64,000 bases of DNA from Candidatus Woesearchaeota archaeon (GTDB taxonomy: Archaea > Nanobdellota > Nanobdellia > Woesearchaeales > B29-G15): positions 18,118 to 82,117 of the forward strand of contig JAFCCU010000002.1 of assembly GCA_017610005.1 (NCBI GenBank). Direction: 5' to 3'. Positions 2,060-46,571 of this stretch are shown in pieces. Below the pieces are notes generated by a model. It was not told the DNA's origin and did not search any database. It worked only from the letters and a program-made list of their open reading frames with translations. Position 1 is the stretch's first letter, and every line of letters begins with the position of its first letter. A program made the translations under genes and the position numbers.

Positions 2060-3967
2060 GTGTTTCTATTGCCAGATATAATAAAAGAAATACTCAAGCA
2101 TATACCGGATAAGAAAATCTCTGAAGCCGCATTTGAAGGAGCAAATATTGTGCTCTACACTAAAGATGCAAAGTTCTTTAGAGAGAATAGCAGTTTAATA
2201 AAAGAGATAGTTAATACTATCAAAAAAAGAATTGAATTAAGACCGGATCCTTCCATATCCATGGAGGAAGATGATGCTGAAAAAGAGATTAAAAAATTAA
2301 TCCCTAAAGAAGCAGGGATCACAAATATTATCTTTGATGGCCAACGTTCCAAGGTAATAATAGAGGCTGAAAAACCAGGACTTGCAATTGGAAAAAGAGG
2401 AGATATCTTAGCAACAATTCGAGAAAAATGTTTCTGGATCCCAGTTATTAGAAGAACTCCTCCGATTAAATCTGCATTAATTGAAAATATTAGGGGTGTA
2501 TTGTATGAGCATAGTGATTACAGAAGGAAATTTTTAGACAAAGTAGGCCATAGGATTTATGATGGCTGGATTCGAGAGAAGAAACAAGAATGGATAAGAG
2601 TTTCAGTACTTGGTGCAGGGAGGCAGGTAGGAAGATCATGCTTTTTATTACAAACTCCTGAAAGTAGGGTATTATTGGATTGTGGAATTGATGTTGCTTC
2701 TTCTGAAAAAGATGCTTACCCTTATCTTGATGCACCTGAATTTAATATTAAAGAACTTGATGCAGTAATCCTCTCTCATGCACATTTAGACCACTGTGGT
2801 TTTGTGCCTTATCTTTTTAAATTCGGTTTTAGGGGTCCAGTTTATTGCACTAAACCAACAAGAGATATTGCAGCATTATTGCTTTTAGATTATGTAAAAA
2901 TTATGCGTTCAGAAAATAAAAAACCAATATTTGACCAAGATGACATTAAAGAGATGGTTAAACATACTATAACTTTAGAATTTGAAGAAGTAACTGATAT
3001 CACACCTGATTTGAGAATTACATTATATAATGCTGGGCACACAATTGGTTCAGCAATGATTCACATACATGTGGGCAATGGTCTTCATAATATGATGTAT
3101 ACAGGAGACATGAAGTATGGAAAAACTGAATTATTGAACCCTGCTGCAACCTCTTTTCCAAGACTTGAAACTTGTATACTTGAAAGTACATACGGTGGAA
3201 GAGATGATATTTTACCAAGAAGGGCAGACTGTGAAAATGAATTAAAAGATATTATTGCAAAGACCATTAAAAGAAAAGGAAAGGTTTTAATTCCTGTTTT
3301 AGGTGTTGGACGAGCTCAGGAAGTGATGGTAGTTGTTGAAAAGATGTTAAAAGAGAAGAAGCTCAAAAAAGTTCCAGTTATAGTTGACGGAATGGTTTGG
3401 GATGTTACAGCAATTCATACAACCTATCCTGAATTTTTAAACAGAGAACTTAAAAAAATGATCTTTCATAAAGACACTAATCCTTTCTTATCTGAATGTT
3501 TCAGGAGAATTGGCTCTCAAAAAGAACGTAGTCAAGTTATCGAAGATGAAGGCCCTTGTATAATTATGGCAACCTCCGGAATGCTTGTTGGCGGCCCTTC
3601 TGTTGAATACTTAAAACGCCTTGGAGATAATCCTAAAAACTCCCTAGTCTTTGTATGTTATCAGGGAGCAGGCTCTTTAGGAAGAAGAATTCAGAGAGGA
3701 GAAAAAGAATTAATTATGGCAACAAATGGAACCAAGCAAGAGATATTGCATTTGAAAATGGAGCACCACACTATCTCTGGTTTAACTGGACACTCTGGAA
3801 GAAATGAATTAATGAACTTTATCCAAAACTGTAGTCCTAGACCTAATAAGGTAATTTTTAATCACGGTGAAAATTCAAAAGTTTTAAACTTAACAAGCTC
3901 CATGCATAAACGCTTTAGAATTGAAACAATCGCACCAAGAAATCTTGAATCTGTTAGAGTTAAGTAG
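2060..3967 (+). CDS. fttA: Archaeal CPSF1 homolog (aCPSF1/FttA-type KH + metallo-beta-lactamase + beta-CASP ribonuclease)
   Basis: 635 aa with an MBL motif HAHLDHCG and downstream beta-CASP motifs. N-terminal KH-like region. GTG start 1 nt after the proteasome stop, giving the typical psmB-aCPSF1 neighbourhood. Confidence 0.9.
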   Translation: MFLLPDIIKEILKHIPDKKISEAAFEGANIVLYTKDAKFFRENSSLIKEIVNTIKKRIELRPDPSISMEEDDAEKEIKKLIPKEAGITNIIFDGQRSKVIIEAEKPGLAIGKRGDILATIREKCFWIPVIRRTPPIKSALIENIRGVLYEHSDYRRKFLDKVGHRIYDGWIREKKQEWIRVSVLGAGRQVGRSCFLLQTPESRVLLDCGIDVASSEKDAYPYLDAPEFNIKELDAVILSHAHLDHCGFVPYLFKFGFRGPVYCTKPTRDIAALLLLDYVKIMRSENKKPIFDQDDIKEMVKHTITLEFEEVTDITPDLRITLYNAGHTIGSAMIHIHVGNGLHNMMYTGDMKYGKTELLNPAATSFPRLETCILESTYGGRDDILPRRADCENELKDIIAKTIKRKGKVLIPVLGVGRAQEVMVVVEKMLKEKKLKKVPVIVDGMVWDVTAIHTTYPEFLNRELKKMIFHKDTNPFLSECFRRIGSQKERSQVIEDEGPCIIMATSGMLVGGPSVEYLKRLGDNPKNSLVFVCYQGAGSLGRRIQRGEKELIMATNGTKQEILHLKMEHHTISGLTGHSGRNELMNFIQNCSPRPNKVIFNHGENSKVLNLTSSMHKRFRIETIAPRNLESVRVK

Positions 3968-4000
3968 TCTTCAGACTTCTTACTTCTTACTTCAGACTGC
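3965..4000. repeat. Octamer repeat family element (CTTCAGAC / GTCTGAAG units)
   Basis: agtcttcagacttcttacttcttacttcagactg immediately after the aCPSF1 stop. Part of the dispersed family listed in the findings. Confidence 0.5.
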
Positions 4001-5739: not shown

Positions 5740-7551
5740 ATGGGTGAGATTATTAGGCAAAGATCTTGGTTAACAATTATTGTATCAATTTTGTTATTAT
5801 CTGTTCTTCTTTATTTGATTATGTTAAATGGCTATAAAGATAACAGAATTGCAGATGCAAAAGTAATATTCTGTGAGGTGATTTTAACACCTGCAACTGA
5901 AAGAGTGTGCGAAGTTGTAACAGGAAGTAATTCTTTGCTCATAAAAGGGAATGTGCTTGACCCAGATATAATTTATCATGGGGGAGAAGTTCTTGTTGAT
6001 GAAACTGGGTTAATTAGGTATGTTGGATGTAGTGAAAACAGACCAGAAGAGCTAGATGCTATCGCATTAGGGGCAACAAAAATTGAATGTGCAGAAGGTG
6101 TTGTTTCTCCAGGGCTTATTAATTCCCATGATCATTTGAATTATAATAATTACCCCTTAGCTGAAACTGGCAAGCGATATGACCATCGCAATGATTGGAG
6201 GTCAAGTTTATCTCCTTTCCCCTATAATTCTTCTCAAGAGAAAGTAACTTGGGCAGAGATGAGACAAACAATGGTGGGCACCACTTCTATTGTAGGCTCT
6301 GGGAATACATTTGGTTTTGTTCGTAACCTTGATTCTGAAAATGAACACTGGGAGATCGTTAACCAAACTGAAATAGTCTCAGATACATTCCCTCTTGAAT
6401 CTCCTGAAGATTATATTCAAAATGATAGGGAATGTTCCCTTTACTCCAAAAAGAATAGATTGAATCCTTATCCTGGGGTTTATGTGCCCCATGTTGCAGA
6501 AGGGGTTAATGAGGCCGCTCATAATGAATTTATTTGTTTAAGTAAGGAAATTGAGAGGAATTTCGCAATTGTTCATGGAATTGCTTTAGATGCTTATGAT
6601 GGAAAACTCATTGCAGAAAGGGGAGCTTCAATAATTTGGTCACCTAGGTCCAACGTAGCCCTGTATGGCAATACTGCCCCGGTTAAAATGCTAAAAAATC
6701 AAGGGGTATTAATTTCATTAAGCACCGATTGGACTCCCACTGGTTCAATGAACCTTGGGCGGGAACTTTTGTGTGCAGATGAATTGAATAAAAAATATTT
6801 TGGCAATATATTTAATGATAGGGAATTGTGGTTAATGGTTACTTATAATCCTGCGGTAGCATTACAAATTGATGATAAACTTGGATCATTAAAACCAGGC
6901 CTTTTTGGAGATATTGTAATTTATGATGGGAGGGGAAAAGATAATCCTTACCGTGCAGTTATAGAAGCGAATGTAAAAAGCACAGTTCTTGTTCTACAAA
7001 GATCATTATTTTCTCAAGGAAATTCTGTGTATGCTGGGAGTATTGCACTTTATGGGGATTCAGAAATATTAAAGGCATTGCCAGAACATGAGATTCAGGC
7101 GCCCCGTTTTGGATTTAGCAAACCCCTTTGCGAGCTAATTTCTGTTTGTGGTGTTGAAAAGACAATATGCCCCGTAAGGGAAACTTGGTGGACTATTTTA
7201 GAAGGTCATACTCCTCTTTCTATGGATGATTTATACAAAAAGAACCAAGATTCTTATCCTTTGTTCTTTTGTGGGGAACCCATTGATGAACCTACATGTA
7301 CTCCTTTTAGGTCAGGAGAATACACTGGAATTATTGCTAATAATGATCTTGATGGAGATGGGATACTTAATATTAATGATAACTGCAAAAATATCTTTAA
7401 TCCCATAAAACTAATGGATGGTAACATCCAACCAGATGCAGATAATGATGGAATTGGAGATGCGTGTGATAGATGCCCATTGGATGCAGGCAAAATGTGT
7501 AATTCATTTAATCCCTACACAAAAGAGATAATTAATATCTTTGATGGATAA
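5740..7551 (+). CDS. Membrane-anchored amidohydrolase-superfamily protein with C-terminal thrombospondin type-3-like Ca-binding repeats
   Basis: N-terminal TM (LTIIVSILLLSVLLYLIMLNG). Metal-binding HxH motif GLINSHDHLNYNNYP typical of amidohydrolases. C-terminal DxDxDGxxDxxDNC repeats (NNDLDGDGILNINDNC, DADNDGIGDACDRCPLD). Confidence 0.7.
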   Translation: MGEIIRQRSWLTIIVSILLLSVLLYLIMLNGYKDNRIADAKVIFCEVILTPATERVCEVVTGSNSLLIKGNVLDPDIIYHGGEVLVDETGLIRYVGCSENRPEELDAIALGATKIECAEGVVSPGLINSHDHLNYNNYPLAETGKRYDHRNDWRSSLSPFPYNSSQEKVTWAEMRQTMVGTTSIVGSGNTFGFVRNLDSENEHWEIVNQTEIVSDTFPLESPEDYIQNDRECSLYSKKNRLNPYPGVYVPHVAEGVNEAAHNEFICLSKEIERNFAIVHGIALDAYDGKLIAERGASIIWSPRSNVALYGNTAPVKMLKNQGVLISLSTDWTPTGSMNLGRELLCADELNKKYFGNIFNDRELWLMVTYNPAVALQIDDKLGSLKPGLFGDIVIYDGRGKDNPYRAVIEANVKSTVLVLQRSLFSQGNSVYAGSIALYGDSEILKALPEHEIQAPRFGFSKPLCELISVCGVEKTICPVRETWWTILEGHTPLSMDDLYKKNQDSYPLFFCGEPIDEPTCTPFRSGEYTGIIANNDLDGDGILNINDNCKNIFNPIKLMDGNIQPDADNDGIGDACDRCPLDAGKMCNSFNPYTKEIINIFDG

Positions 7552-7609: not shown

Positions 7610-7733
7610 CCTCGCCTAGCTCAATGGTAGAGCGTTCGGCTGTAGATCGTTGCTCGACTGTGTTATGATAACATCGAATGATAAGCAGCCAGCCGTTACC
7701 GAAAGGTTCCTGGTTCAAGTCCGGGGGCGGGGA
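7610..7733 (+). tRNA. tRNA-Tyr (anticodon GTA) with a ~52-nt intron at the canonical 37/38 position
   Basis: Hand-folded. Acceptor CCTCGCC/GGCGGGG plus discriminator A. D-arm GCTC-AATGGTA-GAGC. Anticodon stem TTCGG/CCGAA with loop CTGTAGA. Intron ~7647-7698. T-arm CCTGG-TTCAAGT-CCGGG. Short variable loop, i.e. archaeal/eukaryal class I Tyr. Confidence 0.75.
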
Positions 7734-7793
7734 CTCATTTTCTCAGTCTGAAGATAATAGTCTGGAGTACGGAGTCTGCAGTCTGGAGTAAAT
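7704..7793 (+). repeat. Direct repeat copy 1 (tRNA-Tyr 3' third plus ~55 nt downstream)
   Basis: aggttcctggttcaagtccgggggcggggactcattttctcagtctgaagataatagtctggagtacggagtctgcag is repeated almost exactly at 7878..7957. Confidence 0.8.
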
Positions 7794-7877
7794 ATATTTC
7801 CGCCATTCTCTTTAGAGGGTTAATTCGTAGAATTTACCCGAAAGTTTGCTCCTCTGCTTTACAAAGCAGAGACTGTA

Positions 7878-7957
7878 AAGGTTCCTGGTTCAAGTCCGGG
7901 GGCGGGGACTCATTTTCTCAGTCTGAAGATAATAGTCTGGAGTACGGAGTCTGCAGT
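7878..7957 (+). repeat. Direct repeat copy 2 (duplicate of the tRNA-Tyr 3' third plus downstream sequence)
   Basis: Same ~80-nt sequence as 7704..7793. It is preceded by two strong hairpins (gggttaattc-gta-gaatttaccc and ctctgcttt-aca-aagcagag). Confidence 0.8.
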
Positions 7958-16726: not shown

Positions 16727-16785
16727 CAGTCAGAAGTCAGAAGTCTGAAGTCAGAAGTCAGAAGTCTGAAGTCTGAAGTCTTCGG
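16727..16785. repeat. Tandem octamer repeat (GTCAGAAG / GTCTGAAG x ~7) immediately 3' of rps12
   Basis: ggcagtcagaagtcagaagtctgaagtcagaagtcagaagtctgaagtctgaagtcttcgg. A related unit (cttcagac) sits at 16848-16860, directly after the stop of the convergent lipid-kinase gene. Confidence 0.85.
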
Positions 16786-21623: not shown

Positions 21624-21768
21624 GTGTAAGGTTTAGGAGATAATATTTTTCACTCCAGACTCCAGACCCCAGACCCCGTACTCCAGATTGTTGTAGGGTA
21701 TAAGGTATAAGGTTTAGGAGATATTATTTTTCACTTCTGACTTTAGACTTCAAACTTCAGACTGATAG
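21624..21768. repeat. Tandem ~70-nt duplication upstream of the first surface-protein gene
   Basis: Two copies of ggtataaggtttaggagataatatttttcact-C/T-c-A/T-gact... Each ends in octamer-family units (ccagactccagacc / cttcagact). Confidence 0.7.
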
Positions 21769-27985: not shown

Positions 27986-29587
27986 ATGAAGAAATTTGTA
28001 TTTGTAGTCATTCTTTTTTTACTCTTTTTAACAGCGTGTGACAAAGATACAGATGGTGATGGAATTTCTGATACTGAAGATAATTGTATTGGTATTAGAA
28101 ACTCGGATCAAATAGATTCAGATAAAGATGGCTGGGGGGATCCATGCGATTTTAATGAAGATCTAAGTGAAACACTTTTATATTTTTCCGCAACCTGGTG
28201 TACTTATTGCCATGAACAGTTACCAATTATTCGAGAACTTGATCAAGACTTTCCAGATTTAGAAATTCAATATCTTGATTTTGATGCAAGGCAAGATTTA
28301 GTTAGGGAATATGGTATTGTGGGTGTGCCTCATTATGTATTTATAAAAGGAGATTGTTGGAAAAAAACAAGAGGTACAACAAGTTATTCAGAATTAGTTA
28401 ATTGGATGGGAAAGGGTGCTTGCGCAAGATCAGCAGCAGTCCGTAGCCAAGGAGTCAATTTGCAGTCTGAAGTCATAAGTCAGAAGTCACTCAAACCCCA
28501 AACCCCAAACCCCAAACCCCAAACCTTACCAACTGGTTGTTGTATAAATCCTAATGAAAATGCGTGTGTTTATTCTGATGATATTGATAAATGTTGCCCA
28601 GTAGATGGTTATGAAGAATCAATAGGACCGCAATCACAAGCTGAATGTAAAGAACATTGGTTCTTTCCCCACGCAACAGAAGAAGCATGCAGCGTAATGG
28701 ATCCATTAACTTATGAAAATGCACAATATTGTGAATTTGGGTGCTGTTGCGAGGCTACCCCCATAGGTATAGCTGCATTTGCCTCAGAAAAAATCAAGTG
28801 TAATGATTATTGGGGAAGTTATGAAGAATTAAATTGCACGGTAAATGATTGTTCTAAATTTATTGAAGGGGGGGCAACATTAAAGACTGCTTCTCGTGTT
28901 TCTCCAATGGCAACAATCTCAGTTACTCAAACAGAAGATGAAACTTGCGTTGATGAATTGTATATTTTTTGTACAGTAAATCCTTTAGCTACTGAGATAT
29001 CAAATTTACCTGCTGGCGCAATAATTACTAACAACTGCATTGAATTCACCCCCACTGAAGCCCGTAGTTATTCAATTACGTTTAGAGAGGGAGATTATTA
29101 TTCAGAGGTACTAAACTTAGAGGTAATAGACTGCTCTGATCCGCCAGTTTTAGGATTCTTGCGAAATCGGAATGTATACAAAAATCAGATATTTAGTATT
29201 AGGGTACGTGCTACTGGGACAGGAGATTTGACATATGTAGTAGAGGATATGCCTGATGATGCCAAATTCAATCCAAAAAAATTAAAATTTTCTTGGATTC
29301 CAAGAGAGGAGAACGTTGGCAAACAATATAATGTTAAATTTATTGTGATAGATTCAAATGGGAGAACTGATGAAAAAACAGTTGAACTTAATGTTAGAAA
29401 TTATTCTTTCATGTGGATAGCTGGTTTGTCATTGGCCCTTGCAGGTTTACTTTACTTAGGTGCATTATTTTCCGGATTGCTTGAATCTCTAACATGGTTT
29501 TCCTCTTCTGCATGGATATATGTTGCAGGGGCTTGTATTGCGATATCCTTTATTCTGGTCGCGCTTTATTTTCTTTCGGGATTATGA
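27986..29587 (+). CDS. Cys-rich modular surface protein D with thrombospondin type-3 repeats and a thioredoxin-like CxxC domain
   Basis: Lipobox-like signal (FLLFLTAC). TSP3 repeats DKDTDGDGISDTEDNC / DSDKDGWGDPCD. Trx-fold motif LLYFSATWCTYCHEQ...GVPHYVFI. Pro/Thr linker encoded by repeats. Signature module ~28535-28860 (GCCINPNENACVYSDDIDKCCPVDGYE...EACSVM...GCCCEA). He_PIG-like LPAGAIITNNCIEFTPT. C-terminal TMs. Confidence 0.8.
   Translation: MKKFVFVVILFLLFLTACDKDTDGDGISDTEDNCIGIRNSDQIDSDKDGWGDPCDFNEDLSETLLYFSATWCTYCHEQLPIIRELDQDFPDLEIQYLDFDARQDLVREYGIVGVPHYVFIKGDCWKKTRGTTSYSELVNWMGKGACARSAAVRSQGVNLQSEVISQKSLKPQTPNPKPQTLPTGCCINPNENACVYSDDIDKCCPVDGYEESIGPQSQAECKEHWFFPHATEEACSVMDPLTYENAQYCEFGCCCEATPIGIAAFASEKIKCNDYWGSYEELNCTVNDCSKFIEGGATLKTASRVSPMATISVTQTEDETCVDELYIFCTVNPLATEISNLPAGAIITNNCIEFTPTEARSYSITFREGDYYSEVLNLEVIDCSDPPVLGFLRNRNVYKNQIFSIRVRATGTGDLTYVVEDMPDDAKFNPKKLKFSWIPREENVGKQYNVKFIVIDSNGRTDEKTVELNVRNYSFMWIAGLSLALAGLLYLGALFSGLLESLTWFSSSAWIYVAGACIAISFILVALYFLSGL
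28461..28527. repeat. In-frame simple-sequence tract inside gene D: octamer-family units followed by (AAACCCC) x 4.7
   Basis: cagtctgaagtcataagtcagaagtcac then aaacccc x4 plus aaacc (28493-28525). It encodes QSEVISQKSLKPQTPNPKPQT. Confidence 0.85.
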
Positions 29588-33659: not shown

Positions 33660-35078
33660 ATGTGCAAAATGAAAAGATTAATACCCCTGTTTATATTCTT
33701 ATTTGTAATTAGTTTTGTGTATGGTGGGACATACAATCCTCCAGCTCAAGGAATTGGGGCAATGACTTCTGCTTGGTGTATTGATGGAGATGGGCCCGAC
33801 ACTGGAGATTTTAGTACTCATCCAGATTATAGTGGAGACACAAACTGGGCCCCAGAACCAAGAAAAGTTAAAAGTTTTTGTACAAGCCAAATAGATTACC
33901 CTCATCAAAGAGAAGATTCTTGTGTTGATGGATTGTACTCTTTAATGGAATGGGAATGTACTGGCTGTGCAGGTGGGGGCAGTCAAGAATGCGATAACCC
34001 TTTAGATACTTGCGAATTTGGGTGTGTTCATGGGGCATGTTTAGATTCAAGACAAGATTTATTGAACCACATTTATGGGGCAGATAGCCCTGCTTCACTT
34101 TGGTTTGAAGGCCAGTGTAAGGATTCTGATGATCATGATGGGTTTTTATATGATAAATATGATGGAATGGATTATACCGTCCAAGGGGTCTGTGTTGATA
34201 GTAGAGGAGATGTATTTATTGATTATTGCAATAAAGGGCATTTACAAGAATATGTTTGCACTACCGGGGGAGACTGCACTCCACTTGATGAACCAGATGA
34301 TAATGAATGTGACTTGTGTAAGAATGGTAAGTGTATTACTCTTGATAAAACAGTTAGTGGATGTTGCTTAAGTGAGTTTACAACTGGGTGTGGGTATGTT
34401 GATAAATTAGATCAATGCTGTCCAGATTATGGCACTTACGCAGGTGATGATGAGACTGGTCCCACTAGCCCCGGAGATTGCCGTGATAATTATTTTTATG
34501 AAAGAGAAGATACAGAAGCTTGCAGTTTAATTCCTGATACTTTTGAAAATAAAGATTTATGTTTTAGTGGCTGCTGTTGCGATCTTGATACTGAAGGTAA
34601 TCCTCTTGGAAAGCCTTTAAAAAAAGTTGAATGTAACTTATGGCTTGCAGATGGTGTAATGGAACAATTTGGGGGATGTAATCCAGAAAATTGTTTAGTC
34701 GCATCAGGGGGGCAATCATTAATTTCAGGAGAGAGGGATAGCGATCAAGATGGGGTTAATGACGCAGAAGATAATTGTATTTATATCCCAAATCCAATAA
34801 ATGATGATGGGATCCAACTAGATTCAGATAATGATGGTTTGGGAGATGCCTGCGATCCAGATGATGATAATGATGGTATTTTGGATGTAGATGATGACCC
34901 AATAGTCCCTGAAACTTTTATGGAAAAATTATTTGCTTCAGAATCTTTCTGGGGGATACTTATTGCAATATTTGTTGTCCTTGCATTAATATTTTTTACT
35001 TCATTAACTTGGATACCAATTACCCTAATAGGTATTGGAATAGCACTAGCAGGAGTTTTAATTGAGTTTTTGGGGTGA
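33660..35078 (+). CDS. Cys-rich modular surface protein G (signature module plus TSP3 repeats plus C-terminal TM)
   Basis: Signal MKRLIPLFIFLFVISFVYG. Signature module ~34359-34700 (GCCLSEFTTGCGYVDKLDQCCPDYGTY...EACSLI...GCCCDL). TSP3 DSDQDGVNDAEDNC...DSDNDGLGDACDPDDDNDGILD. Confidence 0.8.
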   Translation: MCKMKRLIPLFIFLFVISFVYGGTYNPPAQGIGAMTSAWCIDGDGPDTGDFSTHPDYSGDTNWAPEPRKVKSFCTSQIDYPHQREDSCVDGLYSLMEWECTGCAGGGSQECDNPLDTCEFGCVHGACLDSRQDLLNHIYGADSPASLWFEGQCKDSDDHDGFLYDKYDGMDYTVQGVCVDSRGDVFIDYCNKGHLQEYVCTTGGDCTPLDEPDDNECDLCKNGKCITLDKTVSGCCLSEFTTGCGYVDKLDQCCPDYGTYAGDDETGPTSPGDCRDNYFYEREDTEACSLIPDTFENKDLCFSGCCCDLDTEGNPLGKPLKKVECNLWLADGVMEQFGGCNPENCLVASGGQSLISGERDSDQDGVNDAEDNCIYIPNPINDDGIQLDSDNDGLGDACDPDDDNDGILDVDDDPIVPETFMEKLFASESFWGILIAIFVVLALIFFTSLTWIPITLIGIGIALAGVLIEFLG

Positions 35079-40460: not shown

Positions 40461-42218
40461 ATGTCACGAATTGCAATTGTTGAGCGTAAGAAGTGTAATC
40501 CTACTAATTGTGGGAATTTTCTTTGCCAAAGAGTCTGCCCAGTTAACCGTAAGGGAGATGAATGTGTATTTGAAGCAGAAGGGAAGGTAGGAATTGATGA
40601 AAGTCTTTGTATTGGGTGTGGAATTTGCGTCAAAAAATGCCCATTTGAGGCTATTCAGATCATTAATCTACCTGCACAGCTTGATAAGCCACCAATTCAT
40701 TGCTATGGCAAGAATGGATTTCACTTATTTAACCTGCCAATGCCAATTTTTGGAAAAGTTGTGGGAATTATTGGGAAAAATGGGATTGGAAAGACAACTG
40801 CAATTAATATTTTATCTGGGCTTCTCAGTCCCAATCTTGGTGTGCCTAGAAAGAAAGCAAAATTAGCTGAACTTATTGAATATTTTAAGGGAACTGAACT
40901 TCATAATTACTTTGAAAAATTAAATGCTGGAGAAATAAATGTTGCAGTAAAACCTCAACAAGTATCAATGCTTCCAAAACACTTCAAGGGAAGCGTAAAA
41001 GAATTATTAATTGAGATGGATGAGAAAAAGCAACTTAATGAAATTGCTAAGACCCTTGAATTAGAGAATATTTTTGATAGAAAACTTGATCAAATTTCTG
41101 GTGGAGAATTACAAAGAGTTGCAATTGCTGCTTGTGTTTTACGTAAAGCAAATGTTTACTTTTTTGATGAACCAACTTCTTATTTAGATATTAAACAAAG
41201 AATTAAGGTTAGTAAATTTATTAGAAATTTAGCAGATGAAAATACTGCGGTAGTTGTGATTGAACATGATTTAATTATTCTAGATTATATGACTGACCAA
41301 ATTCACATAACTTTTGGTGCGCCTTCAGCTTATGGTGTTGTGTCAAGTATTGCGGCCACAAAAGAAGGGATTAATGAATACTTGGCAGGCTTTTTAAGAA
41401 AAGAAAATATGAGATTTAGGGCCAATACAATCTCTTTTGATGATAAACCTCCAGTAAAAACTATTCAAGGAGATTTGTTAGTTTCTTGGGATAATTTATC
41501 TAAGACTCTCGGAAGTTTTAAATTTAGGGCATCCCCTGGAGGACTTTCAAGAAAACATGTCATTGGAGTTTTAGGAGAAAATGGAATCGGCAAATCCACT
41601 TTTATGAAAATTTTAGCTGGAGAATTAAAAGTTGATTCTGGCAAGGTTTCAGATAAGGTTTCTTTAGCATATAAACCCCAATATATTGATACTGATTCAG
41701 ATATGATTGTAAGAGAATATCTTAAAGAAGTAATTGCAAAATTTTCAACCGAACTTGTTGCACCATTAAAACTTGAGAAATTGTTTAATGAACCATTAAA
41801 GCAGCTTTCAGGAGGAGAATTACAAAAAGTAATGATTGCAAAAACCCTTGGTCAAGAAGCTGTTAATCTATTCTTATTAGATGAGCCATCTGCCTACCTT
41901 GATGTTGAACAAAGGTTAATTACTTCAAAAGTCATTTCAAAGCTTATTCATAACAGCGGCAAAACTGCATTAATAATTGATCACGATTTATTATTCATGG
42001 ATTATTTGTCTGAAGATTTAATCGTATTTGAAGGTGAACCTGCAAAGCGAGGTCAACTTGAAGGCCCATTTGAAATGGAAAAAGGCATGAATAAATTTCT
42101 AACAGACTTAAACCTTTCAATGAGGCGTGATCAAGAAAGCAAACGCCCAAGAGTTAACAAACTAAACTCTCGACTAGACAGAGAACAAAAAGGAAAAAAG
42201 AAGTTATATTATAGTTGA
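40461..42218 (+). CDS. abcE1: ABCE1 / RNase L inhibitor homolog (ribosome recycling factor; 2 x 4Fe-4S plus two ABC ATPase domains)
   Basis: ATG at 40461 (MSRIAIVERKKCNPTNCG...). Fe-S clusters CNPTNCGNFLCQRVCPVN and CIGCGICVKKCP. Two Walker A sites (GKNGIGKTT; GENGIGKST) and two ABC signatures (LSGGELQ). Confidence 0.9.
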   Translation: MSRIAIVERKKCNPTNCGNFLCQRVCPVNRKGDECVFEAEGKVGIDESLCIGCGICVKKCPFEAIQIINLPAQLDKPPIHCYGKNGFHLFNLPMPIFGKVVGIIGKNGIGKTTAINILSGLLSPNLGVPRKKAKLAELIEYFKGTELHNYFEKLNAGEINVAVKPQQVSMLPKHFKGSVKELLIEMDEKKQLNEIAKTLELENIFDRKLDQISGGELQRVAIAACVLRKANVYFFDEPTSYLDIKQRIKVSKFIRNLADENTAVVVIEHDLIILDYMTDQIHITFGAPSAYGVVSSIAATKEGINEYLAGFLRKENMRFRANTISFDDKPPVKTIQGDLLVSWDNLSKTLGSFKFRASPGGLSRKHVIGVLGENGIGKSTFMKILAGELKVDSGKVSDKVSLAYKPQYIDTDSDMIVREYLKEVIAKFSTELVAPLKLEKLFNEPLKQLSGGELQKVMIAKTLGQEAVNLFLLDEPSAYLDVEQRLITSKVISKLIHNSGKTALIIDHDLLFMDYLSEDLIVFEGEPAKRGQLEGPFEMEKGMNKFLTDLNLSMRRDQESKRPRVNKLNSRLDREQKGKKKLYYS

Positions 42219-43978
42219 CCTTGCCCAATCATATAAGCCAGATTTCTTGGTTGGTTCATTAAAGAACTAGGCATTACTAAACTTCCATCTGGCTTAATAG
42301 TTTGGTAAATTAAGGCCCTTCCAAGTGGGAAGTGTGAAGTTGCCTGTTCAATCATGTTTTTTCTTGACATATCAATTGTTGCATCTCTAAAGGTTCTCCA
42401 ACCTTCAAGGTCACCAGTGGCCTTATAATCGCCTAGTCTTCCCAATAATTTTGGAATTTCTCTTCTCATAACCTGGAGGTCAACTTTGTAAGTTGGTGTT
42501 CCTGCGTGGCTAGTATCCTCAACAAATCCTCCTGTTTCAAGGAAATAGTGGAAGATTATATTTCTAGCACCGCTATGATCTAAAGGAGGAAATCTTAAGG
42601 AGCTAATTCCTGAAAGTAACATATCATAGTAACCTGCTAGTTCATGTTCTTTTGTTATAGCTCCTGCTTCAACTAATTGTGGTAAGGCCCACATTCCAAA
42701 GACCTCTGCTCTTGCTTCTTCAAGCACCGAATATTCTTTACCAAAGACCTTTCGGGGCATTTGAATAACACTGCCACCTAGTGCGTGACCTACTTCGTGT
42801 TCAGCGGTGTGGATATCTCCCACATAGGCCATCAAAGGTAAAATATCATTTAATAGCGCCGCATCAAAGAACAACTCACCCCATCTTCTATTTCCTCCCT
42901 CCCCAATTGCCGCTGAAACATTAATTGGAAGCACAATTATTGTACCATACTTTTCTCTAAATTCTTGTTCATCAGGTAAATTTTGGCCTGCAATTACTGA
43001 TGGCCAACAATTTGAGAAACCTGACCAGTTTACTGCATCTACAATTTTTAATACAGGCAAGACCTTGCCATCAATTGATTCTTTATGTTTCCATGGCGCA
43101 GTTTCAACTTGCATACTTACAAGATCAAGAATTTGAACTTCAAGATCCCTAAACTTTGGATTACTAACATAGAGTACTCCCTGTGCGGCCCCAAGTGCTC
43201 CATGAACTTTATCTAAGTAAGTTTCTCTTCCTGTTTCAATGATAAAATCAACTGGTTGAGTTTTATTGCCAAGCCAAATTCTATCTGTTTCAAATCTGCC
43301 TGGTTTTGAATCAGATTGTAATGATACTATCTTGGCCGCAAGGTAAGCTTTTAACTCAGGGTTTTTAGTTATCCCCATTGCTTTTCTCATATGGCCAAGC
43401 ACAACTTCTAGTTCTGGACCAAATCTCTCATAATTTGGAACAATTGCAGGAGTTCCATCCTCTCCCCGGACAACAGTGGAAGCTAAAGCATCCCCTAATT
43501 CAAGTTTCTTCCTCTCTTCTAGGGGCATATCTGCTGGATATAAACCAGAACCTTCAACAAACTTGGCATTTCCCCAAAGAACATCTGCAAATTCCATAAT
43601 AGGATCATCTTTAGGAATATCTCCCCATCCTACTGGAAAAACATAACTCATTTGAAAGCTATCAAATATTGTTGAACTTGCAGTTAATCTGTTTAAAAAA
43701 TGAGTAATTGCTTCAGGATTTTGGGCCCTGTCTCGGTAATCAATAACTGCTTTTACCAAAGGAATCACTTTTTCATCTTGCTGCTTGGCATAAATTGGCT
43801 GCAATGCATCAACAGCCAGAGAAAGTTCATGAATTAAGGCTGTTTGATCTGGAGTAAATCCTGACAAATCAACTTCTACAGGAATAATTTCTCCTGATTT
43901 TCTTGCCCCATCTGATCTTAGGTATTCAATAGTATTTAATTGTGTACTTACTTGTCCACCTGGTGGAAAATCATTCAT
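42209..43978 (-). CDS. Zn metallopeptidase, DPP III (M49)-like HExxH ... EExRAE motifs, paralog 1
   Basis: HEVGHALGG ... EEARAE. ATG at 43978 is preceded by AGGAGG 6 nt upstream; the ORF-track GTG at 44008 sits inside the conserved leader. Convergent 10-nt overlap with the abcE1 3' end. Confidence 0.55.
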   Translation of the reverse strand: MNDFPPGGQVSTQLNTIEYLRSDGARKSGEIIPVEVDLSGFTPDQTALIHELSLAVDALQPIYAKQQDEKVIPLVKAVIDYRDRAQNPEAITHFLNRLTASSTIFDSFQMSYVFPVGWGDIPKDDPIMEFADVLWGNAKFVEGSGLYPADMPLEERKKLELGDALASTVVRGEDGTPAIVPNYERFGPELEVVLGHMRKAMGITKNPELKAYLAAKIVSLQSDSKPGRFETDRIWLGNKTQPVDFIIETGRETYLDKVHGALGAAQGVLYVSNPKFRDLEVQILDLVSMQVETAPWKHKESIDGKVLPVLKIVDAVNWSGFSNCWPSVIAGQNLPDEQEFREKYGTIIVLPINVSAAIGEGGNRRWGELFFDAALLNDILPLMAYVGDIHTAEHEVGHALGGSVIQMPRKVFGKEYSVLEEARAEVFGMWALPQLVEAGAITKEHELAGYYDMLLSGISSLRFPPLDHSGARNIIFHYFLETGGFVEDTSHAGTPTYKVDLQVMRREIPKLLGRLGDYKATGDLEGWRTFRDATIDMSRKNMIEQATSHFPLGRALIYQTIKPDGSLVMPSSLMNQPRNLAYMIGQGQL

Positions 43979-43980
43979 TT

Positions 43981-44160
43981 TTATCCTCCTAAAAAATATA
44001 TATCTCACAGAATCGCAAGGTCTTCACCTCTTAAAAATTAGAATGAAGCTTGATTAATAAACTTTTGTATAAAGGAGTATATAACAAGGCCAAAACCCAC
44101 AATCATTATAACAATTAAACCTCAATATATTGGTTTATGCTGAGGATATCTTAGCAAAAT
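43981..44160. repeat. Conserved upstream block, copy 1 (shared with 46098..46262)
   Basis: ttatcctcct...cacagaatcgcaaggtcttcacctcttaaaaattagaatgaagcttgattaataaac...ggccaaaac...aaacctc is ~85-90% identical to the block upstream of the paralogous peptidase. Confidence 0.8.
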
Positions 44161-44226
44161 TTCTAACAGCGCTTGACCCCTCAATGAGATCAAGAGTTAA
44201 CTCGCGACTAGAGAACAAAAAGGAAG

Positions 44227-46095
44227 TTATAGTTGACCATTTTGAATCATGGCCGGAATAGTTCTCTTTTGATCCATATACTCTTTTGGCCATGATACCT
44301 CATAAGATGTTCTCCCCGAACCAGCAATTTCTCCCACTTTGATTTGTGGGAAGACCAACAATCTTCCAAGGGGTCTGTCTGAAGTAGTCTTTCTAACCCA
44401 ATGAGCCCTTTTCATGCTAATATACTTGTCAAGATGGGCTTCAGTGGATTCATAGTCTCCAACCGCTTTCCAATCAGTTAACTTACCAAGCAGTTCTGCA
44501 GTTGTAGCTTCCCATTTTTCAATATCAATTGTGAATTTCTGAGAAACACTTTCTCCTGGCCTTGCATGTGCCCTTGTGTGATGGGACACAATTGCTCCTT
44601 TTTCAAGGAAATAGTGGAAGCACATGTTGGCTGCTCCAGAATGATCTTCTGCAGGGAACATTAATGAAAATGCCCAACCTATTAACTCGTTATAATATCC
44701 TGCAATCTTTTGTTCTTCCGTAATTACTCCCATTTCAACTAGATCTGGGAGAGTCCAGGAGGCAAAAAGATTGGCTCTTGCCTCTTCAAATTCAGAGAAT
44801 CTTGCATCATGTTCTCCAAAGTAATCATCAGGAGATTTTGGAAGATCATAGCCTCCTGTGGTGTGCCCAAGTTCGTGTTGGCCCATGTGTAGCTGCGACA
44901 TAAATCCAAACAGTGAGACATATTGGTGAGCTTCAGGCATTAAGAATTGATCTGCAAGTTCTGTTCCAACAGTCAATTGAACTGCCCTGTGAATATTAGA
45001 GAATATCACATTGACTGTTCCATATTTTTCTGCAACTTTCTTGTCATTTGGTAAGGATTCTGCAGCAGTTATAAACGGGAAATGGTCGTAGTTTCCAGTC
45101 CAAGATAAAACCTCGAGGAATTTTATAATTGGGACATTTTCAAGCGTTGCTTCATCCTTCTTATGATCCCAAGGAGCATTTTTCTCCCAATAAGTCATCC
45201 TTGCCTTAAGTTTTTCGATTAATGGATCAAATTCATGATTTACAAGACCAACCACTCCTTGAGCCATTCCTCTAATTCTAGCTATTCCATCAGAATATTT
45301 TTCAATACCAGTGCCAATAATAAAATCAAGATCACTTTTACTACCAATCCAAGCAACTTCACTTGCAGTTAAACTCTCTTTTGATCCAACTTGAAATTGA
45401 TTAATTGTTGCATCAAGATATGCCTCTAAGGTTGGTTCCTGAGTTAACTCTTTAGCCCGTTGTAAGGAGCTAATAATTGGTCTTAATTCTATTGCAAATC
45501 TTTCTTCATTTAAGGGGGCTATGTACCCTTCAGAAGTTTTAACAACTGTTGAATTAACTGCATCCCAGTTTTTAAGCCGTTTAATTTGTTCAAGAGGTAA
45601 TTCATCAGCAACAAGTCCTCTTGCTTTTGGGGGATCGGTGTGATCCCAAAGAGGGAGATCTCCTTCTAAAAATCCTTCAGGGATTCTATCTCTAGGGATA
45701 GGGAAAGGCAATGACCAGTGAAAAGCATCCCAAGGCGTATTTGATGCACTAATAAGTCTTGCATAATCTGTAACTTTTGCTTTGTCTTCTTCATCTTCTA
45801 AGGAATCTCTAACCTGGATCAATTCTCTTTGAAAATCAATCATTCTAGGATCTTCCTGGATTGCATAAATCGGATTAATTGAATCAACCCCTTCAGCTAT
45901 AGCTAAAGCAGTTTGCATTTGTGAGGGGGGGGTGGCTCTTAAAACACTTTCATCAATATCAATAGGAATGATCCAATGATCTCTTGTTTCAGTTACCTTT
46001 CCATTTGTTCTAGTATAAGGAACCCTTTTTAGTTCTGGCTTTTCTCCTACTTCCCTAACAATTGTACCTGTTTTTCCAACATTACTTGCTCCCAT
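44227..46095 (-). CDS. Zn metallopeptidase, DPP III (M49)-like HExxH ... EExRAE motifs, paralog 2
   Basis: HELGHTTGG ... EEARAN. AGGAGGATAAG then ATG. ~30-35% aa identity to paralog 1, judged by eye. Confidence 0.55.
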   Translation of the reverse strand: MGASNVGKTGTIVREVGEKPELKRVPYTRTNGKVTETRDHWIIPIDIDESVLRATPPSQMQTALAIAEGVDSINPIYAIQEDPRMIDFQRELIQVRDSLEDEEDKAKVTDYARLISASNTPWDAFHWSLPFPIPRDRIPEGFLEGDLPLWDHTDPPKARGLVADELPLEQIKRLKNWDAVNSTVVKTSEGYIAPLNEERFAIELRPIISSLQRAKELTQEPTLEAYLDATINQFQVGSKESLTASEVAWIGSKSDLDFIIGTGIEKYSDGIARIRGMAQGVVGLVNHEFDPLIEKLKARMTYWEKNAPWDHKKDEATLENVPIIKFLEVLSWTGNYDHFPFITAAESLPNDKKVAEKYGTVNVIFSNIHRAVQLTVGTELADQFLMPEAHQYVSLFGFMSQLHMGQHELGHTTGGYDLPKSPDDYFGEHDARFSEFEEARANLFASWTLPDLVEMGVITEEQKIAGYYNELIGWAFSLMFPAEDHSGAANMCFHYFLEKGAIVSHHTRAHARPGESVSQKFTIDIEKWEATTAELLGKLTDWKAVGDYESTEAHLDKYISMKRAHWVRKTTSDRPLGRLLVFPQIKVGEIAGSGRTSYEVSWPKEYMDQKRTIPAMIQNGQL

Positions 46096-46097
46096 CT

Positions 46098-46262
46098 TAT
46101 CCTCCTATAAAAATAATAATTACCCCACAGAATCGCAAGGTCTTCACCTCTTAAAAATTAGAATGAAGCTTGATTAATAAACCTTTGTGTAAAGAAGTAA
46201 ATAAGGAGGCCAAAACTTACAATTATCACAACAATCAAACCTCCAATAAAAACAGAACTCTC
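46098..46262. repeat. Conserved upstream block, copy 2 (overlaps the 3' coding end of the 46158..46571 gene)
   Basis: See 43981..44160. Here the block also encodes the C-terminal TM anchor ...GLLIYFFTQRFINQASF of the neighbouring small secreted protein. In copy 1 this coding frame is broken by a 2-nt deletion. Confidence 0.8.
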
Positions 46263-46571
46263 CTTACCACTAACCTTCACTGGCACAATAATCTCACTAT
46301 TATTCTCCTTGATAATAACCTCATGCTCACCAGGTGGCAACTCAAAGGTTACCTTCGTCCAATCGTTAACAGTCTGAAGTTGAAAGTCTGAAGTTGAAAG
46401 TAACTTTAGACTTCGGACTTCGGACTTCTGACTTATTTGGGCTGTCCACACCTCAAACCCCTCTCCCCTAACCCGCAAAACAACTTCTCCATCAGTCTCA
46501 ATACTAGCTGGTGACACTGCAATTCCCTGGGCCAATGGAATTAATAATAAAAAAAGAATTAGATATTTCAT
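46158..46571 (-). CDS. Small secreted protein with a C-terminal TM anchor (137 aa)
   Basis: Signal MKYLILFLLLIPLAQG and a C-terminal hydrophobic helix. Translationally coupled to the upstream LTD protein (4-nt overlap). It contains an in-frame octamer-repeat palindrome at 46369-46435. Confidence 0.6.
   Translation of the reverse strand: MKYLILFLLLIPLAQGIAVSPASIETDGEVVLRVRGEGFEVWTAQISQKSEVRSLKLLSTSDFQLQTVNDWTKVTFELPPGEHEVIIKENNSEIIVPVKVSGKESSVFIGGLIVVIIVSFGLLIYFFTQRFINQASF
46369..46435. repeat. Octamer repeat family element, imperfect palindrome, in-frame inside a CDS
   Basis: cagtctgaagttgaaagtctgaagttgaaagtaactttagacttcggacttcggacttctgac. It encodes ...ISQKSEVRSLKLLSTSDFQLQTV... on the minus strand. 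Confidence 0.8.

Follow-up and report, generated by a model that had tools for sequence, protein, structure and literature searches.

Two tandem genes for DPP III-like metallopeptidases, here called pepA and pepB, form a mosaic tandem duplication in the genome of a Candidatus Woesearchaeota archaeon, with old gene bodies set between young flanks. The genes lie in a 64,000-nucleotide (nt) stretch of the metagenome contig JAFCCU010000002.1 (the window, whose positions are used throughout) and stand between abcE1, which encodes the RLI/ABCE1 ATPase, and orf137, a gene for a small membrane protein. It is firm that the bodies and the flanks have different histories and have been joined by recombination, since young flanks around old bodies in a tandem duplication require it, and no processes other than segmental duplication, gene conversion and illegitimate recombination need be invoked. 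The explanation that we favour, at a probability of about 0.4, is an old tandem duplication within the lineage whose short flanks have been held alike by gene conversion from copy to copy.

Divergence of the gene bodies and of their flanks

The order along the plus strand is X, pepA, Y, a 29-nt junction, X', pepB, Y' and the remainder of orf137, with both peptidase genes on the minus strand. X (42093..42218, plus strand) is the functional 3' end of abcE1, as seen from sequence and translation, and X' (44157..44226, plus strand) is a decayed copy of it. Y (43981..44127, minus strand) is the block upstream of pepA and comprises a Shine-Dalgarno sequence, an AT-rich spacer, a 57-nt core and a stub of orf137. 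Y' (46097..46248, minus strand), the block upstream of pepB, holds a Shine-Dalgarno sequence, the same core and the genuine C-terminus of orf137. The enclosed genes are pepA (42209..43978, minus strand, 589 aa, with its stop codon at 42209-42211) and pepB (44227..46095, minus strand, 622 aa).

The two peptidases are 33% identical over 607 aligned residues (BLASTP E 9e-102) and their genes are approximately 50% identical as DNA. Where the residues are identical, 22 of 72 four-fold third positions match, a proportion to be compared with the 0.35 expected from composition, and estimation by NG86 over the bodies gave a dN of 0.70 and a dS of 1.7, the latter a saturated value, with 42% identity at codon position 3. 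In a global alignment of the two units the sliding identity stayed at about 0.35-0.65 through the gene bodies and reached 0.78-1.00 across 43990-44105 versus 46106-46225. The discordance between bodies and flanks begins at the ATG and stops at the last four codons. The uniform divergence along the unit that a single age would give was thus not seen, with flanks 90-100% identical and bodies only about 50% identical at the DNA level.

Y and Y' match at 133 of 147 ungapped columns (90%), with 5 gap columns and three small indels, and their identity is highest in the middle of the block and drops towards both edges. They share an exact run of 57 nt (44006-44062 and 46126-46182), which occurs twice in the window against an expectation of 0 and is longer than chance would allow if the differences were evenly spread (P 0.003-0.01); such a block-like tract of identity is equally expected from purifying selection on a promoter. 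X' aligns to X in colinear blocks of 13, 11, 14 and 16 nt with about six deletions between them and approximately 90% identity within the blocks. The alignment score of 73.75 was not reached by any of 1000 shuffled sequences (24.0 +/- 3.2). X' therefore differs from X by substitutions at about 10% of positions, while the orf137 stub in Y has diverged by 14-20%, and X' is nearer to the resident X than is the abcE1 3' end of a relative with the same gene order (locus L001, 64% nt identity). The identity of X and X' extends about 5 nt into pepB, taking in the stop codon and part of the last codons, and the reading frame of X' is broken near its end such that the stub finishes out of frame. The first deletions in X', of 21 and 9 nt in total, preserve the abcE1 frame (KFLTALDPSMR..SRVN..SRLE), although this may be chance.

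A preliminary description of the locus had proposed two divergent tandem paralogs of about 30-35% identity with flanks far more conserved than the coding sequence, and the protein identity, the sliding identity plot and the comparison of Y with Y' all bear this out. It had named as the contrary outcome bodies as similar as flanks, which would have indicated a plain recent duplication; the bodies proved saturated against flanks of 90-100% identity, and that explanation is excluded. The limits of the shared blocks needed correction: the upstream homology ends at 44127/46248 and not at 44160/46262, and the downstream block exists as described but starts earlier than had been claimed, at 42093/44157.

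Geometry of the duplication

The repeat pairs run head to tail in tandem register, with a spacing of 2030-2120 nt throughout the unit, and X-pepA-Y and X'-pepB-Y' are a tandem segmental duplication of 2.0-2.1 kb that has clipped both neighbouring genes. The stub in Y derives from the 3' end of orf137; it occupies 44038-44121, retains 27 codons and the stop in frame (GLIVIMIVGFGLVIYSFIQKFINQASF-stop) and is cut by an in-frame TGA at 44122-44124. This stub has accumulated about 7-8 replacements versus 4-5 silent changes in 28 codons. Since the clipped ends of both neighbours are represented, orf137 in Y and abcE1 in X', the whole unit must have been copied and not a regulatory element alone. The description of each copy as having one functional flank and one frameshifted relic holds for X and Y', which are functional, and for X', which is frame-broken, but not for the stub in Y, which is still in frame. 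A possible 22-codon ATG open reading frame (MIVGFGLVIYSFIQKFINQASF) is also present in the Y stub (44038-44103, minus strand) and may be there by chance.

The junction between the units (44128..44156), at which the end of one meets the start of the other, showed no significant similarity to any other part of the window, and in comparison with abcE1, 260 of 1000 shuffles scored as well. A longer abcE1 relic reaching back to 41672, with AAACCTCAATA as a microhomology, was considered and rejected: the 17-mer overlaps the Y homology and the junction is not significantly abcE1-like. No third peptidase paralog was found in the window, and a search for further copies of Y or of its core, as might mark a regulon motif, found only the two copies in 64 kb. 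A mobile element or integration site (duplication of an attachment site, or a miniature inverted-repeat transposable element) was also rejected on the grounds that there are only two repeat copies and that the neighbouring genes are housekeeping genes.

The locus in related genomes

The GC content of the host is 35.5% over the window, and ABCE1 together with the best protein matches indicates a Woesearchaeota-like member of the DPANN archaea. No close relative was found in protein searches with pepA, pepB and ABCE1, in an exhaustive profile search or in genome and metagenome scans; the best identities in the collections searched were at most 40% for the peptidase and at most 74% for ABCE1. The number of peptidase genes at the locus varies among the syntenic relatives. 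There is at least one at locus L014 (ABCE1 74% identical to that of the window), where the contig ends, one at L001 (70%), and none at L015 (68%) or on the P0165 contig (68%). The gene order at L001 is that of the window, with an LTD-domain protein, a small protein, the peptidase (P0001), a convergent abcE1 and a tRNA synthetase, the last also being 70% identical to its counterpart in the window. Tandem pairs were not seen in other members of the family, six other loci each having a single gene in varied contexts.

In neighbour-joining trees pepA and pepB were sisters in 52-77% of bootstraps, with P0001 as the next relative. Long-branch attraction was considered as the source of this grouping and rejected, as support grows with stronger rate correction. 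The codon-usage distances of the two genes, 0.19 and 0.197, lie within the range of the window (0.208 +/- 0.041), and their GC contents at third codon positions are 0.24 and 0.26; the syntenic relatives have a GC content of 45-50% against the 35.5% of the window. This host-like composition, together with the synonymous agreement of X' with X, makes a recent transfer from a distant donor unlikely.

Of the immediate neighbours, abcE1 (40461..42218, plus strand) has matches to the Pfam families Fer4_RLI, Fer4 and two ABC_tran, and its product is 70% identical at the amino acid level to the ABCE1 of L001. It is convergent with pepA, and its last 10 nt overlap the 3' end of that gene. On the other side, orf137 (46158..46571, minus strand) encodes a small membrane protein that has a signal-like segment at its N-terminus and a membrane helix at its C-terminus, and is followed by the gene for the LTD-domain protein. 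Positional counterparts of like build are present at L001 (162 aa) and L015 (154 aa). No sequence similarity could be detected between orf137 and the counterpart at L001, which suggests that orf137 is fast-evolving.

Origin of the mosaic

In the favoured explanation a unit of about 2.0-2.1 kb, running from the abcE1 3' end through a peptidase gene with its Shine-Dalgarno sequence and promoter to the last 28 or so codons of orf137, would have been duplicated in tandem within the lineage. The peptidase bodies would then have diverged to saturation as old paralogs retaining their zinc-site motifs, while the copies of the flanks recombined with each other and so were kept similar or made so anew. 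By then gene conversion, or concerted evolution, would have been confined to the sole stretches still similar enough for pairing, and each peptidase gene would be driven by its own copy of one promoter and leader and would end at a T-run antisense to abcE1. The duplication would thus be old and in situ, and the youth of the flanks would be due to gene conversion and not to a recent joining of two variants. An origin within the lineage is favoured by the sister grouping of pepA and pepB and by the host-like codon usage of both. Borders at the ends of the coding sequence fit conversion, as selection on the protein ends there and neutral, pairable sequence begins; the peak of identity in the middle of Y and the long perfect run are likewise expected, given that conversion tracts need homology on both sides. 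Direct repeats in register, an end-to-start junction, clipped neighbours and a sharply bordered similar part are all features of tandem duplications under concerted evolution. In the usual cases, however, it is the coding regions that are homogenised or that differ at a few selected sites, whereas here a whole 1.8-kb body is saturated and only non-coding or stub flanks of 70-150 nt are alike.

Several observations weigh against this explanation. The identity of P0001 to the two peptidases (40% and 37%) exceeds that of pepA to pepB (33%), the support for their sisterhood is moderate only, and a 43-residue C-terminal fragment from L014, the closest of the relatives, is nearer to pepB (20 of 43 residues) than pepA is. 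It is awkward that functionless stubs would have had to outlast synonymous saturation in a compact genome. X' has undergone about six deletions but only about 10% substitutions, which suggests that only about 0.1 substitutions per site ago it was still an unbroken, good copy and that no conversion has reached it since; in this it resembles a young relic more than one maintained over a long period. It is also awkward that the fresh 1.8-kb bodies, which would have been better substrates for conversion than flanks of 70-150 nt, escaped it entirely. The reading of the locus as concerted evolution is, moreover, drawn from one genome.

Somewhat less probable, although a real possibility, is a recent stacking, in which two old variants of the peptidase gene that had the same flanks in closely related genomes were brought together about 0.1 substitutions per site ago. 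Possible routes are unequal or illegitimate recombination, homology-facilitated illegitimate recombination or the integration of a circularised fragment by a single crossover. Both abcE1 and orf137 would have been clipped in the process, and the 57-nt core would be a repaired crossover zone. This would account for the similar youth of both relics (about 10% for X', 14-20% for the Y stub), for the fresh deletional decay in X' and for a junction that lacks homology, as in an illegitimate joint. It also suits the variability of the locus, with one peptidase gene at L001, at least one at L014 and none at L015 or on the P0165 contig, and the arrangement at L015, where the small membrane-protein gene directly abuts abcE1. 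Comparable stacking and displacement of divergent modules between conserved arms, by homology-facilitated illegitimate recombination and with pieces of genes left over, has been described in type VI secretion system (T6SS) effector-immunity arrays and in Rhs and contact-dependent inhibition orphan arrays (PMC5361080). Those arrays resemble the present locus in having divergent homologous genes in tandem, a conserved repeat beside each, leftover fragments and a homology-free joint. They are, however, bacterial toxin and immunity loci in which many alternative alleles have been observed, whereas the genes described here encode a cytoplasmic-type peptidase in a DPANN archaeon, are both complete with what appears to be a promoter, and have no alternative haplotype among the sequences seen. 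The stacking would require a donor, so far unobserved, with flanks of about 90-100% identity around a peptidase of only 33% identity, and the collections searched hold no peptidase relative above 40% and no ABCE1 above 74%. The divergence of pepA from pepB is as deep as that from L001, whose ABCE1 is only 70% identical, and stacking alone leaves unexplained why the discordance has its borders exactly at the start codon on one side and the last four codons on the other.

A further proposal, which we consider speculative and rather improbable, is that the locus is a cassette site at which the shared promoter arm and the terminator arm antisense to abcE1 serve as a working recombination scaffold for peptidase bodies. 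Bodies could then be stacked, popped out or exchanged, giving 0, 1 or 2 variants per genome, and in the tandem state a single haploid genome would have two old variants fixed in it. Of the mechanisms put forward in the preliminary description, both gene conversion limited to the flanks and cassette-like replacement or stacking between shared arms are viable.

An assembly artefact, in which reads of two co-occurring strains or species would have been merged through k-mers common to both, the 57-mer for example, is improbable. The window does come from a metagenome contig (111,263 nt), and the k-mers often used in assembly are about as long as the 57-nt repeat. The deleted and frame-broken X' nevertheless stands immediately after a Y-type block, so that some real genome must have the order Y-junction-X'-pepB-Y', which is itself a signature of tandem duplication. 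A chimera would still require a divergent peptidase between near-identical flanks, and neither GC content nor codon usage shifts within the region.

Still less probable is that the pair is an intermediate in gene displacement, with one peptidase gene recently acquired from a distant archaeon with the same gene order and now standing beside the resident. The order abcE1, peptidase, small membrane protein and LTD protein is indeed shared with relatives at 68-74% ABCE1 identity, and the two bodies differ as much as separate lineages of the family do. Codon usage and third-position GC are typical of the host in both genes, however, where the syntenic relatives have 45-50% GC, and at synonymous positions X' agrees with the resident X far more closely than does a distant abcE1 such as that of L001 (64% nt). 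A distant donor could also hardly have yielded a Y of 80-100% identity given how fast orf137 appears to evolve.

Purifying selection alone, acting on flanks that are regulatory (promoter, leader, terminator) or that encode small products, has very little to recommend it as an account of the whole pattern. The 57-nt run is longer than chance and spans a T5 run and A/T box lying about 57-60 nt upstream of both starts, the Shine-Dalgarno sequences are identical, and the Y stub is still in frame and holds the possible 22-codon open reading frame. X, however, is constrained as abcE1 coding sequence, and X' would need to have the same sequence for an unrelated reason. The region upstream of the L001 peptidase gene has nothing in common with the core, Rfam gives no match and the folds are not significant (z 0.30 and -1.09), and the ratio of replacements to silent changes in the Y stub (about 7-8 to 4-5 in 28 codons) is not one of strong constraint. 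Strong regulatory constraint, which had earlier been offered as a general cause, therefore fails as such, much of the shared sequence consisting of non-functional stubs, although it may still explain the perfect 57-nt core. If the duplication were simply a recent one and the proteins had since evolved very fast, the tandem geometry and the long branches of both copies would fit, but this reading is refuted by four-fold sites at random identity (22/72) beside neutral stubs that differ by 10-20%, a combination for which positive selection on the protein is insufficient.

Assignment of the peptidases

The family profile matched DPP III structures with E values from 3e-44 to 1e-9, the best match (E 3e-44) being to the short bacterial DPP III of Caldithrix abyssi (PDB 6eom; MEROPS M49), with which the genes of the window also have the EEXRAE motif in common. 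On its own pepB matches PF03571, the Pfam family for M49, at 53.8 bits against a cut-off of 21, while pepA alone has no match to PF03571 above threshold; the earlier designation of both as M49-like is thus supported by the family profile and, for pepB, by Pfam, but for pepA not by Pfam alone. Both zinc-site motifs are represented in the two proteins, the first in a variant form. The second, EEXR(K)AE(D), is EEARAE in pepA and EEARAN in pepB. The first is a five-residue HEXGH (HEVGH in pepA, HELGH in pepB) in place of the canonical six-residue HEXXGH of DPP III. The Caldithrix enzyme has also been reported to carry a five-residue first motif. The columns invariant in the family alignment are H394, E395, G397, H398, E420, E421, R423 and A424.

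The family is large and highly divergent, with 1701 representatives at E<=0.001 in the exhaustive profile search and pairwise identities of only about 30-40%; its nearest members are 40% identical to pepA and 37% identical to pepB. In the 90% clusters pepA is filed under an unrelated 54-aa Logan fragment, and as a result it is hidden from searches of representatives and seemingly absent from databases.

Shared putative regulatory and 3'-end sequences

Both leaders carry the Shine-Dalgarno sequence AGGAGGATAA (minus strand, 43981-43990 for pepA and 46097-46106 for pepB), and the identity here is 11/11 nt. The core contains an A/T box (minus strand TAATTTTTAA, 44031..44040, with its twin on the pepB side at 46151-46160) that has a T5 run directly after the stop codon of orf137 or of its stub. 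This box is plausible as a candidate TATA element, lying about 57 nt upstream of the pepA ATG and about 60 nt upstream of the pepB ATG, and the T5 run and A/T box together could form a terminator-plus-TATA element. The 57-nt core may be either a promoter under constraint or the tract of a recent conversion or crossover event. Judging from these sequences, pepA and pepB are probably co-regulated through their own copies of one promoter and leader. No structured RNA or riboswitch was found in 43900-46400 by Rfam at E<=1, the two leaders folding with z of 0.30 and -1.09, and the region upstream of the L001 peptidase gene showed no similarity to the 57-nt core. A scan for promoters and terminators of bacterial type gave nothing above background, but as the models are bacterial and the host archaeal this is little informative.

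At the other end of the genes T-runs follow both stop codons, as the complement of 42187-42191 and 42194-42199 for pepA and, within X', as a T5 run complementary to 44217-44221 for pepB. These are plausible as archaeal terminators, and they arise as the antisense of the lysine-rich tail of abcE1. The shared GQL-stop ending of the two peptidases, which had been pointed out in the preliminary description, is indeed present and is the antisense of the C-terminal ...YYS-stop codons of abcE1. It was observed that genes converging on abcE1 in this clade end in QL-stop whatever they encode, the gene being that of the peptidase in the window (42209-42218) and at L014 and that of the small membrane protein at L015; this follows from the antisense reading of the conserved ...YYS-stop codons. 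At L014 (5347-5479) a peptidase-like gene ends ...MQGQL-stop, and at L015, which has no peptidase gene, the small membrane-protein gene (1886-2350) enters abcE1 in the same register, with FQL-stop as its ending.

Other repeats in the window

A 7-nt periodic motif, AGTCWGA(AGTC), occurs mostly between genes, with 23 matches versus 1.2 expected (3967-3998, 5510, 7773, 16728-16780, 21739-21763, 28464-28488, 40400 and 46371-46433), and forms a tandem array of seven units at 16728-16780. It looks like a genome-specific family of short repeats. At 46371-46433, within orf137, two opposed sets of the heptamer make up an imperfect hairpin of considerable length (DNA fold z = -3.9) that is in frame, as though a repeat element had entered the coding sequence.

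Rfam identifies an intron-containing tRNA at 7610-7733 (50 bits, intron of 55 nt), whereas ARAGORN reports none anywhere in the window. The 3' half of this tRNA, together with heptamer repeats, recurs as an exact copy of 81 nt lying 175 nt downstream (7702-7782 = 7877-7957), which could be either a second tRNA with the same 3' half or a partial duplicate. Several large genes contain Asp-rich repeats of calcium-binding type, similar to thrombospondin type 3 repeats, at 7345-7470, 28046-28162 and 34737-34895 (families D2, D3 and D8), and these genes probably encode surface proteins.

Implications

This is a single locus on a single metagenome-derived contig, and its general importance is limited accordingly; the arrangement is mildly surprising for a compact DPANN genome. 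It nevertheless displays cleanly, in a member of the DPANN archaea, how the flanks and the bodies of a tandem duplicate can have different histories; the biology of recombination in this group is, to our knowledge, almost unexplored. The presence of one promoter sequence at two divergent DPP III-like peptidase genes predicts that they are co-expressed, possibly with different substrate ranges. If stacking is the correct explanation, the locus would show gene replacement at a conserved site caught in an intermediate state and would imply the exchange of DNA between close relatives. If it is gene conversion that has kept the flanks alike, homologous recombination in these cells would act on tracts of only about 70-150 nt.

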